From the IMG/VR virus record IMGVR_UViG_2713896778_000030: 4,253 bases of DNA; one strand, given 5' to 3'. The position numbers and the translations under genes were made by a program. Numbering within the stretch: the stretch's first letter is position 1; every line of letters begins with the position of its first letter. The stretch is from a virus (taxonomy: Duplodnaviria > Heunggongvirae > Uroviricota > Caudoviricetes). Shown here one piece after another: positions 98-3,274 of the stretch. The notes beneath the pieces are model-generated. The model ran no database searches and was not told where the DNA came from. It worked only from the letters and a program-made list of their open reading frames with translations.

Positions 98-335
98 CTG
101 CTTCTTTGCCGATCCCGGGATGCCTTCCATTCTGATGTTTGACTTCGCCCACTGAGAAACCCTCTGTTTCCCCTTAACGCCGGGGTAGCGGAACAAAAAC
201 CTGCTGCATAGTTATTAAAGTTGAACCCTGCCGTCATGTTCATACGCCTCGGGCTGGCTACTTAACCCCTGACCACTGCCGGGTAACTCGAAGTATTTCC
301 CTGCGTTCTGTGGGGCGGGGTGGGTTGGTATTTTT

Positions 336-363
336 AGTTTAATAAACATTAAACTTAAGTCAA
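336..363 (-). promoter_or_regulatory. Leftward PL-like promoter (-35 TTGACT, 16-nt spacer, -10 TAAACT on the minus strand)
   Basis: The reverse complement of 358-363 (agtcaa) is TTGACT and of 336-341 (agttta) is TAAACT. These are the same two hexamers as the rightward promoter at 1351-1380. An operator-like palindrome covers the spacer and -10. Confidence 0.4.
337..354. promoter_or_regulatory. Operator candidate OL: 18-bp palindrome GTTTAAT-AAAC-ATTAAAC
   Basis: The 7-bp arms GTTTAAT and ATTAAAC are exact reverse complements around a 4-bp spacer AAAC. It has the same architecture and spacer as the site at 1362-1379. Confidence 0.5.
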
Positions 364-376
364 GTAAAAACTAAAC
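359..376. promoter_or_regulatory. Degenerate second operator-like site ending in ACTAAAC
   Basis: gtcaagt-aaaa-ACTAAAC: the right arm is the conserved heptamer and the left arm matches the consensus at about 5 of 7 positions. The following CTAAACCG-N-GG (371-381) recurs at 1393-1403. Confidence 0.3.
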
Positions 377-939: not shown

Positions 940-1311
940 TCAGGCGCGGCGGCATTTTTGCGCCGCAATCCATCTCGCTATGAGATCTTCCATTGATTCT
1001 TTTTTCTGCTTTAACTCGCTGATTATCTGGCGTTGCTCATCCTCAGGGAAGGCTGAAAAAATCTGCAATAATTCCAGTTGATTAGACGTTAACCCTGCAT
1101 GTGGTGGAGAAACCCCCGGTTGTTCTGCGTATTCCGCATCCAGATACCCTTCCGGCATCCCGTATGTTTGCTCTATTCTTCTGGCAGCCTTTTCTCCAAA
1201 CGAGGCTCTCCCACTCATTAGTTGAGATAGGTAGCTCTTCTCTTTGGGTGGCAGAGTTTTATCTTTAAACCACTCCTTGAGACGTAAACGGCGAATTTCT
1301 TTTTTTTGCAT
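940..1311 (-). CDS. paaR2: HTH transcriptional regulator (PaaR-like); putative CI-type prophage repressor, 123 aa
   Basis: Minus-strand ORF with ATG 1311-1309 and TGA 942-940. Protein starts MQKKEIRRLRLKEWFKDK and carries an HTH with recognition-helix-like segment KSYLSQLMSGRASFGEKAARRIEQ. It is first in the operon with the antitoxin and toxin and divergent from a cro-like gene. There is no Shine-Dalgarno; a -10-like hexamer sits 6 nt upstream of the ATG. The upstream in-frame ATG at 1374 would lie inside the divergent promoter region. Confidence 0.65.
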   Translation of the reverse strand: MQKKEIRRLRLKEWFKDKTLPPKEKSYLSQLMSGRASFGEKAARRIEQTYGMPEGYLDAEYAEQPGVSPPHAGLTSNQLELLQIFSAFPEDEQRQIISELKQKKESMEDLIARWIAAQKCRRA

Positions 1312-1317
1312 GTGGTA

Positions 1318-1346
1318 ATTATCTTTAGTAATCACTAAACAAGCAA
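1318..1346 (-). promoter_or_regulatory. Leftward PRM-like promoter for the repressor operon
   Basis: On the minus strand, -35 TTGCTT (rc of 1341-1346), a 17-nt spacer, and -10 GATAAT (rc of 1318-1323). The spacer is exactly the 18-bp operator-like site at 1323-1340. The predicted transcription start falls at or next to the A of the ATG at 1311. Confidence 0.4.
1323..1340. promoter_or_regulatory. Operator candidate (OR, PRM-proximal): cTTTAGT-aatc-ACTAAAC
   Basis: TTTAGT (1324-1329) and ACTAAA (1334-1339) are exact reverse complements around a 4-bp spacer. It shares the heptamer ACTAAAC with the sites at 1373-1379, 1392-1398 and 370-376. Confidence 0.5.
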
Positions 1347-1350
1347 ATAC

Positions 1351-1380
1351 TTGACTCAATGGTTTATTAAACACTAAACT
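1351..1380 (+). promoter_or_regulatory. Rightward PR-like promoter for the cro-like operon
   Basis: -35 TTGACT (1351-1356), an 18-nt spacer, and -10 TAAACT (1375-1380). The hexamers are the same as in the leftward promoter at 336-363. The -10 lies inside the operator-like site at 1362-1379. Confidence 0.45.
1362..1379. promoter_or_regulatory. Operator candidate (OR, PR-proximal): GTTTAtT-aaac-ACTAAAC
   Basis: 7-bp arms with one mismatch around spacer AAAC; same spacer and arm consensus as the site at 337-354. Confidence 0.5.
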
Positions 1381-1387
1381 CGCAAAA

Positions 1388-1398
1388 AAACACTAAAC
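1388..1398. promoter_or_regulatory. Operator half-site aaac-ACTAAAC
   Basis: Third copy of ACTAAAC preceded by the AAAC spacer motif, with no matching left arm. It lies between the PR -10 and the cro-like Shine-Dalgarno. Confidence 0.3.
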
Positions 1399-1408
1399 CG
1401 AGGAAGGT

Positions 1409-1711
1409 ATGACATTAAAAGAGTTTATTAAATCATTAAGGGTTGGTGATGCTAAGAAATTCGCGGCCAGACTTGGTGTATCGCCATCTTACTTATCGCA
1501 AATGGCGTCTGGACGAACAGCTATATCTCCAACCCGCGCCCTTATGATCGAATCTGCGACGGAAGGCCAAGTAAGTAGGGCGGAGCTACGACCTCATGAT
1601 TGGGAGCTTATTTGGCCTGAGTATGCGAGCGGCATTCGTTTGGGGCAAACACATGTAGTTCATGCTGAAGGTGATTGTAGTGCATGCTTATCTGATGGAG
1701 TTGATTCATGA
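1409..1711 (+). CDS. Cro/YdaS-like HTH DNA-binding protein, 100 aa
   Basis: ATG 1409 preceded by AGGAAGG (1401-1407). HTH segment AKKFAARLGVSPSYLSQMASGRTAISPTRALMIESAT resembles the YdaS/Cro family. It is divergent from the repressor gene. The stop TGA 1709-1711 overlaps the next ATG (ATGA). Confidence 0.65.
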   Translation: MTLKEFIKSLRVGDAKKFAARLGVSPSYLSQMASGRTAISPTRALMIESATEGQVSRAELRPHDWELIWPEYASGIRLGQTHVVHAEGDCSACLSDGVDS

Positions 1712-2220: not shown

Positions 2221-3183
2221 ATGAGCAGCAAGCTTCATGGTCTTGTCTGGGAAGGGTGCGCCTTCACCGGCATGATCTTATCCAGGGTGGCGGTTATGGC
2301 CCGTCTTGCAGACTACAGCAATGACGAGGGCGTGTCATGGCCTGCCATTGAAACTATCCGGCGTCAGATCGGTGCAAGAAGTGAATCCACAGTGAAATCG
2401 GCTATTGCAGAACTGGCGAAAGAGGGCTGGCTGACGAAGGAAGAGCGTAAGGTCGGTGGGCGTAATGTAAGCAATATCTATCGGCTTAATGTGGAAAAAC
2501 TCGAAGCAGCTGCGGCGGCGGCGCGTGAGTCATATAAACCGAAAAGAAAAATTAGCCCGGCAAAAAATGACCCGTTAACAGTTGACCCGTCAAATATTGA
2601 CCCCTCAACGGTTGACCCGTCAAATTTTGATGGATCAACTGTTGATAAAAAACTGCCGATTAGGGGGGCGATGATTGACCCCGATCCGTCAGTATTAAAA
2701 CCTGATCCGTCAGATAAAAGATCTTCTTGTCCGGACGCTTCGCAACCGGACCCGCAGACGGCTGAACAGGATTTTTTAACCCGACACCCTGACGCGGTTG
2801 TGTTCAGTGCGAAAAAACGCCAGTGGGGAAGTCAGGAAGATTTGGTGTGCGCACAGTGGATCTGGGGACGAATCGTGAGTCTTTACGAGCAGGCGGCCAG
2901 CGATGATGGCGAGATCACTAGACCGAAAGAACCCAACTGGACAGCATGGGCCAATGACGTTCGCACAATGCGGATGCTGGATGGCAGAACTCACAGACAA
3001 ATTTGTGAAATGTTTGGGCGTCTCCAGCGGGATTCGTTCTGGGTAAAAAACATCATGAGTCCGGCAAAACTCCGGGAAAAATGGGATGAACTGGTTATCC
3101 GCCTGGGGCGTTCGCCTGCGCAGCGTTGCGTGAATCACATTTCTGAACCGGACACTGAAATACCGCCGGGCTTCAGGGGGTAA
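2221..3183 (+). CDS. Phage replication initiator (O-like), 320 aa
   Basis: ORF 2206-3183 in the supplied track opens at GTG; the preferred start is ATG 2221, 4 nt after GGGGG. The N-terminal region (LSRVAVMARLADYSNDEGVSWPAIETIRRQIGARSESTVKSAIAELAKEGWL) looks like the winged-helix N-domain of phage replication initiators. A central linker has tandem peptide repeats DPLTVDPSNIDPSTVDPSNFDGSTVD encoded by iteron-like DNA repeats. The C-terminal domain is not recognised specifically. Confidence 0.65.
   Translation: MSSKLHGLVWEGCAFTGMILSRVAVMARLADYSNDEGVSWPAIETIRRQIGARSESTVKSAIAELAKEGWLTKEERKVGGRNVSNIYRLNVEKLEAAAAAARESYKPKRKISPAKNDPLTVDPSNIDPSTVDPSNFDGSTVDKKLPIRGAMIDPDPSVLKPDPSDKRSSCPDASQPDPQTAEQDFLTRHPDAVVFSAKKRQWGSQEDLVCAQWIWGRIVSLYEQAASDDGEITRPKEPNWTAWANDVRTMRMLDGRTHRQICEMFGRLQRDSFWVKNIMSPAKLREKWDELVIRLGRSPAQRCVNHISEPDTEIPPGFRG
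2566..2655. repeat. Candidate replication origin: tandem 15-bp iteron-like repeats inside the initiator gene
   Basis: Head-to-tail 15-bp units: aatgacccgttaaca (2566-2580), gttgacccgtcaaat (2581-2595), attgacccctcaacg (2596-2610), gttgacccgtcaaat (2611-2625, identical to unit 2), tttgatggatcaact (2626-2640), then an A-rich unit gttgataaaaaactg (2641-2655). The core TTGAC-CC-GTCAA has inverted-repeat arms. Related copies (tgaccccgatccgtcag, cctgatccgtcag) lie at 2676-2713. Confidence 0.55.
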
Positions 3184-3224: not shown

Positions 3225-3274
3225 NNNNNNNNNNNNNNNNNNNNNNNNNNNNNNNNNNNNNNNNNNNNNNNNNN
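3225..3274. other. Gap (50 N) removing the 5' end of the following gene
   Basis: AGGAGG (3214-3219) lies 5 nt before the N run, and an open reading frame resumes at the first base after it (3275). No duplicated flank is visible here. Confidence 0.7.

Follow-up and report, generated by a model that had tools for sequence, protein, structure and literature searches.

A near-identical recognition helix in the PaaR2 repressor and the Cro-like YdaS of a CP-933P-type prophage, probably a long-standing constant of the immunity switch

Why should two antagonistic regulators, encoded divergently on either side of a common operator region, carry almost the same recognition helix? The question is raised by a 4,253-nt stretch of DNA (IMG/VR virus record IMGVR_UViG_2713896778_000030, Caudoviricetes; hereafter the window, meaning the whole of this stretch), which is the immunity region from a cryptic lambdoid Escherichia coli prophage of the CP-933P type. 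It encodes the CI-like repressor PaaR2 and the Cro-like regulator YdaS, the helix-turn-helix (HTH) domains of which share a decapeptide. Our answer, to which we attach a probability of roughly 0.8, is that helices 3 and 4 of the two proteins are homologous, that the shared motif is a long-standing constant of the switch module, and that the same half-sites are bound by both regulators.

Residues 26–35 of PaaR2 (SYLSQLMSGR) and 27–36 of YdaS (SYLSQMASGR) are identical at eight of ten positions, the exceptions being 6 (L/M) and 7 (M/A); the decapeptides and the count are as given in a preliminary description of the locus made from its sequence. When both proteins were shuffled with their composition preserved, the best ungapped 10-mer match reached eight in one of 2000 trials, and against this null the match is beyond chance. 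Against a family-aware null it appears far less striking, because SYLSQMASG is the YdaS-subfamily consensus: in an exhaustive search it emerged as the consensus for the 153 nearest representatives of YdaS-family clusters, seven of which match the PaaR2 helix at eight or more of the ten positions. The comparison with YdaS, Cro and CI families that had been suggested as a check marks the motif as a hallmark of the family, not as something special to this prophage. The shared helix is not discussed in the open literature that we found; subscription journals may hold such papers.

Residues 1–66 of PaaR2 are 100% identical to PDB entries 7nkv, 8c3k and 8c3l, and YdaS is 100% identical to 8c7k and 8co2 over the solved range. 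RefSeq names the PaaR2 protein only "hypothetical protein". YdaS matches Pfam PF15943 (YdaS_toxin) at 46.5 bits (cut-off 30) and HTH_3 at 29.8 bits (cut-off 23), and its HTH is of the canonical Xre/YdaS type. PaaR2 is laid out as an N-terminal, three-helix, Xre-like DNA-binding domain (residues 1–60) followed by a DicA-like C-terminal oligomerisation region. The N-terminal domain superposes on solved Xre-type domains and has the lambda-repressor-like (Xre) fold; its scores with the sequence models of that family stay below threshold (HTH_31, 14–15 bits against a cut-off of 27; HTH_3, 13 bits against 23).

AlphaFold places the helices of YdaS at residues 3–9, 14–22, 26–34 and 41–50, with a predicted local distance difference test (pLDDT) score of 95 over the domain and a C-terminal tail of low confidence, and those of PaaR2 (1–60) at 3–17, 22–33 and 40–50 (pLDDT 94); both models superpose on the solved structures at 0.6–0.7 Å. 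Residues 27–34 of YdaS thus fall in helix 26–34, and residues 26–33 of PaaR2 in helix 22–33. In the Pfam HTH_3 alignments YdaS 16–50 runs along profile positions 13–47 and PaaR2 25–57 along 23–55, which puts both decapeptides on positions 24–33, the helix 3 segment plus its glycine cap. Taken together, the alignments and the modelled helices locate the motif at the recognition-helix-equivalent position in both proteins, where it had been proposed to lie; in neither of the modelled domains does the decapeptide fall outside the helix-3-equivalent helix and its cap.

The remainder of the two proteins had been described as dissimilar. This holds for the C-terminal halves, which are unrelated, but not for the DNA-binding domains, in which the similarity runs on through helix 4. 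BLASTP aligns PaaR2 3–48 with YdaS 4–49 without a gap, 16 of the 46 residues being identical (35%; E 3e-4), and hhalign of the two family profiles confines the homology to 26 columns in helices 3 and 4, PaaR2 24–49 against YdaS 25–50, at 94% probability (E 1e-7). Beyond this point PaaR2 residues 71–119 resemble the C-terminal region of DicA, the repressor of the Qin prophage, the gene for which lies in the same position; the match to the DicA model NF007257 (E 1e-6, 28.5 bits) falls well short of its cut-off of 101 bits, and the two proteins differ in their N-terminal DNA-binding domain. The C-terminal half of YdaS consists of an LRPxDWxxIWPE segment and the low-confidence tail. Among PDB sequences the profile of the PaaR2 N-terminal family matched PaaR2 alone of all HTH proteins and missed even YdaS, so sequence profiles alone do not single out YdaS as the nearest relative of PaaR2. 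Common ancestry of helices 3–4 is plausible and would be ancient, as for the 434 repressor and Cro. In these comparisons it is indistinguishable from shared membership in the Xre superfamily; the hhalign E-value, once scaled to the size of Pfam, is about that of the sub-threshold HTH_3 and HTH_31 matches of PaaR2.

The DNA between the two genes carries the repeated sites. ACTAAAC occurs four times in the window (at 370, 1334, 1373 and 1392), a number reached in none of 200 shuffles, and three of the copies (1334–1340, 1373–1379 and 1392–1398) are half-sites inside the intergenic region of 97 bp, the half-site consensus being GTTTAGTAA. Imperfect palindromes of 18 bp lie at approximately 1323–1340, 1362–1379 and 1381–1398, the last keeping its right half only; the palindromes between the genes read TTTAGTAATCACTAAAC and GTTTATTAAACACTAAA, and there is a third copy of AAACACTAAAC. 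With its repressor and Cro genes diverging from repeated operators that overlap two promoters, the locus is organised as a switch of the lambda type. Most of the operator region lies between the arms of a perfect 9-nt inverted repeat (TTTTTTTGC/GCAAAAAAA, 1301–1309 and 1382–1390, arms 72 nt apart), which may be due to chance in AT-rich DNA.

The regulation of this switch has been published. Jurenas et al. (mBio 2021, PMC8630535) described PaaR2 as a leaderless CI analogue, YdaS as the Cro analogue and YdaT as the CII analogue. Their DNase I footprints on the 97-bp region overlap (PaaR2 ~78 bp, YdaS 65 bp), and PR933P, PRM933P and PL933P, the latter 3' of parE2, are repressed by both proteins. 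Electrophoretic mobility shift assays, DNase I footprints and gfp reporters are reported to show that the two regulators share operators with opposite site preference (PMC8630535). The supposition that both act on the same operators is supported by the overlapping footprints and the joint repression of PR, PRM and PL.

The same arrangement recurs well outside E. coli. Among the 120 listed of 156 PaaR2 homologues the segment EKSYLSQL[MI]xGKASFGEKAARR[LI]E is almost invariant; the search behind this figure needs shared 5-mers and is biased to conserved motifs. Scanning a single genome for each species yielded 62 loci spanning Enterobacterales, Pasteurellales, Orbales, Burkholderiales, Nitrosomonas and others (Gamma- and Betaproteobacteria), and 47 of these have as divergent neighbour a YdaS-type Cro in which S[YF]LSQ[ML]A.G occupies the aligned position; neither the Cro motif nor the operator DNA had been selected for. 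Related loci have a common intergenic architecture, GAGTTTAnnnAnnACTAAAC, then GTCAAGTATTTGCTTGTTTAG, then TACTAATCAAAATG, conserved over 46 intergenic regions. Half-sites of the form CTAAA[CT]/[AG]TTTAG occur there at 21 per kb, compared with 1.2 per kb over the remaining parts of the loci, and 38 of 46 unique intergenic regions hold a GTTTA-N7-9-TAAAC palindrome. The PaaR2-type N-terminal domain, the YdaS-type Cro and the operator half-site therefore appear, from these comparisons, to travel together as one cassette.

Other forms of the module also occur. In Serratia, Yersinia and Erwiniaceae a PaaR2-type N-terminal domain, 70–80% identical, is fused to an S24 LexA-like peptidase (PF00717; homologues P0061–P0118), and the S24-fused and DicA-tailed forms represent domain shuffling between SOS-inducible and non-inducible repressors. 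The domain is also encoded by Escherichia phage Evi (100%), Klebsiella phage 5 LV-2017 (68%) and Burkholderia phages vB_E177 and vB_E169 (66%), the records concerned being LR597642.1, KY271399.1, PQ789817.1 and PV072755.1; the module is therefore not limited to cryptic prophages. A second module of E. coli, of the CP-933M/PaaR1 type (locus L070, 760–900), has the repressor helix SYLSQLMSGK, the Cro helix SFLSQMASGT and related but diverged operators, GTTTATACGCAACTAAAT and GTTTTGCGATTACTAAAG. Cross-talk between co-resident CP-933M- and CP-933P-type modules is conceivable.

In the switch as we picture it, PaaR2, the CI analogue, is transcribed leftward with paaA2-parE2, and YdaS, the Cro analogue, rightward with ydaT; both bind common GTTTAG/CTAAAC-type half-sites in the 97-bp region and at PL. 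SYLSQ(L/M)xSG forms the helix-3-equivalent helix of both Xre/lambda-repressor-like domains. Alignment on the glycine cap with the 434 and P22 repressor structures would assign L3 and L/M6 to the hydrophobic core and G9 to the helix cap; S1, Y2 and Q5 would then point into the major groove and, in PaaR2 and YdaS alike, recognise the conserved half-site, and S4, S8 and R/K10 would lie near the backbone. Base contacts by S1, Y2 and Q5, with both regulators probably reading the same half-site through the same residues, fit the co-conservation of these residues with the GTTTAG half-site in both proteins. The opposite outcomes would arise, as for lambda CI and Cro, from differing affinity for single sites and from oligomeric state, PaaR2 being an octamer and YdaS a monomer.

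Several points weigh against a half-site read in common. Cognate helix identity is 5.33/10, against 5.22 for shuffled partners (39 unique pairs), and 682 of 10000 shuffles reached the observed value (p ~0.07). Cro proteins of Pasteurellaceae and Orbaceae have the helix SYLRQVETGY or AFLRHIEIGL, yet SYISQL persists in the repressor and the half-sites look as before; at least positions 4 and 6–8 are therefore not needed for the half-site. The scan patterns contained the repressor motif, the conservation of which in the locus set is thus partly by construction. PaaR2 has three helices only and a non-canonical HTH without a discrete first helix (helix 2), and its docking geometry may differ from that of YdaS; between helix 1 and the motif it would be some six residues shorter than a related repressor, that of locus L066, which keeps a normal helix 2. 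The exact binding sequences are still to be determined according to PMC8630535. Finally, the contact of motif residues with bases is inferred from alignment.

Much the same evidence bears on the alternative that the motif is scaffold: the helix 3 consensus of the Xre subgroup, S-x-L-S-Q-x-x-x-G, would be kept for folding, and the operator would be chosen by the N-terminal arm, the helix 2 region, loops or oligomer geometry. Positions 1, 2, 4, 5 and 9 are near-constant in the repressor and Cro families. The Cro proteins have L at position 3, as do roughly half of the unique repressor helices, the others having I, F or V. Accordingly, S1, Y2, L3, S4, Q5 and G9, six of the eight identities, are family constants or near-constants. 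Of the 39 cognate pairs only 5 agree at position 8 and 7 at position 10, and the identities at S8 and R10 seem coincidental, since true partners resemble each other no more than shuffled ones do. That SYLSQMASG is the plain subfamily consensus, that L3, L/M6 and G9 occupy core or cap positions in the HTH_3 alignment, that cognate helices do not covary, and that variant Cro helices occur with unchanged half-sites would all be expected of a scaffold. Three YdaS-type switches with variant Cro helices were sampled (L063, L066 and L067), and in two of them, L066 and L067, the repressor and Cro helices share one residue in ten, which suggests that helix sharing is no general rule of such switches. 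The third speaks the other way: in L063 the two helices again begin alike (SQGMVWQY in the repressor, SQGLVSQW in Cro, or SQG(M/L)VxQ). Moreover, S1 and Y2 are conserved in both partner families though a generic HTH_3 does not demand them, the half-site is co-conserved with both helices across distant genera, and Q5 aligns with the base-contacting glutamine of the 434 and P22 repressors. On balance we consider a pure scaffold unlikely.

The preliminary description hinted that one HTH might have been recruited from the other, that is, that the domain or its recognition helix was copied between the two genes in this prophage lineage by duplication or gene conversion. The 8/10 identity, the almost equal distance of the two decapeptides from the N terminus (residue 26 against 27) and the ungapped 46-residue BLASTP alignment would suit such an event, yet the coding stretches match at only 17 of 30 nucleotides and their serine codons differ in class (AGC against TCT). 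The same pairing is found in Enterobacterales, Pasteurellales, Burkholderiales and Nitrosomonas; the N-terminal architectures differ, with three helices in the one and the canonical alpha1-alpha2-alpha3 in the other; and the profile similarity, limited to 26 columns, is after Pfam scaling no stronger than the sub-threshold HTH_3 and HTH_31 matches of PaaR2. Recent copying is disfavoured by the nucleotide comparison and by the wide phylogenetic spread of the pairing, recent gene conversion between paaR2 and ydaS being rejected on the former, and with no excess of identity in cognate pairs either, recruitment within this prophage finds no support; we regard it as very improbable. Slighter still is the likelihood of a chance resemblance between two unrelated short peptides. 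The motif is short and serine, glycine and leucine are common residues, but the single success in 2000 shuffles, the hhalign E-value of 1e-7 and the recurrence of the motif in both partner families in 47 loci refute it.

Comparison with known systems supplies the background to the preferred reading, a conserved helix within a repressor/Cro/operator module. The 434 repressor and 434 Cro are the textbook homologous HTH pair reading the same operators, and the present switch resembles theirs in its divergent repressor and Cro genes, shared operators and similar recognition helices (QQSIEQLENG and QQSIQLIEAG in 434, 6/10 shared, QQSI..E.G). It differs in that the 434 domains are homologous throughout (phmmer E 2e-14), whereas PaaR2 and YdaS are similar in helices 3–4 only and belong to different sequence families, and in the missing discrete helix 2 of PaaR2. 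It resembles lambda CI/Cro/CII in gene order, in a repressor mRNA that has no leader, in an OR where PR and PRM overlap, in a PL/OL site, in a repressor that forms octamers and in bistability (PMC8630535). Unlike lambda CI, PaaR2 lacks an S24 autocleavage domain (no PF00717 match); there are four equally spaced 18-bp repeats in the published description rather than three operators; and YdaS has the all-alpha YdaS-type fold, not that of lambda Cro. Rep of Salmonella phage SPC32H (PDB 5d50) was not detected from PaaR2 by phmmer at E <= 1, and differs in its C-terminal domain and its antirepressor control. The PaaR2/YdaS/YdaT region of CP-933P with paaA2-parE2 in E. coli O157:H7 is the same system, with the same 97 bp, a PL-like site 3' of parE2 and no sequence difference.

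The features of the window are collected in Table 1. Positions 300–1810 are 100% identical to E. coli O121 RM8352 over 1511 nt and are covered to at least 80% in 583 of 5426 complete E. coli genomes. The order regulator-antitoxin-toxin, with an antitoxin of the PaaA2 type and a toxin of the ParE type, identifies a PaaR2-PaaA2-ParE2 module. For paaR2 a GTG start at 1374 (mechanical open reading frame 940–1374, spanning the operators) was rejected in favour of the ATG at 1311: N-terminal sequencing of PaaR2 gave MQKKE, which fixes the start there (PMC8630535), and this ATG coincides with the published transcription start, giving a leaderless mRNA.

Table 1. Genes, motif codons and regulatory sites in the 4,253-nt window
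Feature	Position	Strand	Basis or remarks
OL/PL933P-like operator cluster 3' of parE2	331–376		GTTTAATAAACATTAAAC, minus-strand TTGACT -35 element, ACTAAAC 370–376
parE2, toxin	448–726	minus	Pfam ParE_toxin PF05016, 60.8 bits; RefSeq coding sequence (CDS) coordinates
paaA2, antitoxin	728–919	minus	Pfam PaaA2 PF21217, 70.7 bits; NCBIfam RelB antitoxin, 84.1 bits; RefSeq CDS; co-transcribed with paaR2
paaR2, CI-like repressor, 123 aa, leaderless	940–1311	minus	RefSeq CDS WP_001169687.1, same coordinates
Codons for PaaR2 residues 26–35, SYLSQLMSGR, helix-3-equivalent helix	1207–1236	minus	
Divergent promoter/operator region, 97 bp, PRM933P and PR933P	1312–1408		
ydaS, Cro-like regulator, 100 aa	1409–1711	plus	PDB identity; Pfam YdaS_toxin and HTH_3; AlphaFold model
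Codons for YdaS residues 27–36, SYLSQMASGR, recognition helix alpha-3 and G-R cap	1487–1516	plus	
ydaT, CII analogue	1708–2198	plus	Pfam YdaT_toxin; interrupted by N run 1811–1860
O-like replication gene	2221–3183	plus	

Downstream of ydaS, TTGATTCATGAAAATCAA at 1701–1718 is an exact copy of the published YdaT operator OM, TTGATT-N6-AATCAA (PMC9986795); it covers both the stop of ydaS and the start of ydaT, with one match observed and none expected. The window contains two N runs of 50 nt (1811–1860 and 3225–3274). On either side of the first stands one copy of a 15-nt duplication, AAGCGTATTTCGAGC (1796–1810 and 1861–1875), and deletion of this run with one copy of the duplicate restores an intact 426-nt ydaT as in E. 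coli RM8352, so the interruption is a masking or assembly artefact and not a disrupted gene. Within the O-like gene, 2547–2643 holds at least four copies of 15-bp-periodic TTGACCCGTCAA-type repeats, which encode VDPS peptide repeats, form a 33-nt imperfect inverted repeat and resemble the iterons of an origin, like those in lambda O.

The switch, its operators and the structures of both proteins had already been described, and the finding is largely an ordinary one that restates a published system and a textbook principle. Its modest addition is that the near-identical helix is a conserved signature of a repressor/Cro/operator cassette in dozens of species, from which comes the hypothesis that S1, Y2 and Q5 are the residues reading the GTTTAG half-site. 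A further question is by what means, if at all, heteroimmunity arises in switches of the PaaR2/YdaS type. It is possible, though we would rather doubt it, that the PaaR2/YdaS switch represents one essentially invariant immunity specificity across Gamma- and Betaproteobacteria, with repressor helix, Cro helix and half-site all unchanged. If so, prophages of different genera, and the co-resident CP-933M- and CP-933P-type modules of O157:H7, could cross-regulate one another, and whatever heteroimmunity exists would need to be encoded elsewhere than in the recognition helix, perhaps in the spacer bases, the N-terminal arm or the geometry of the oligomer.
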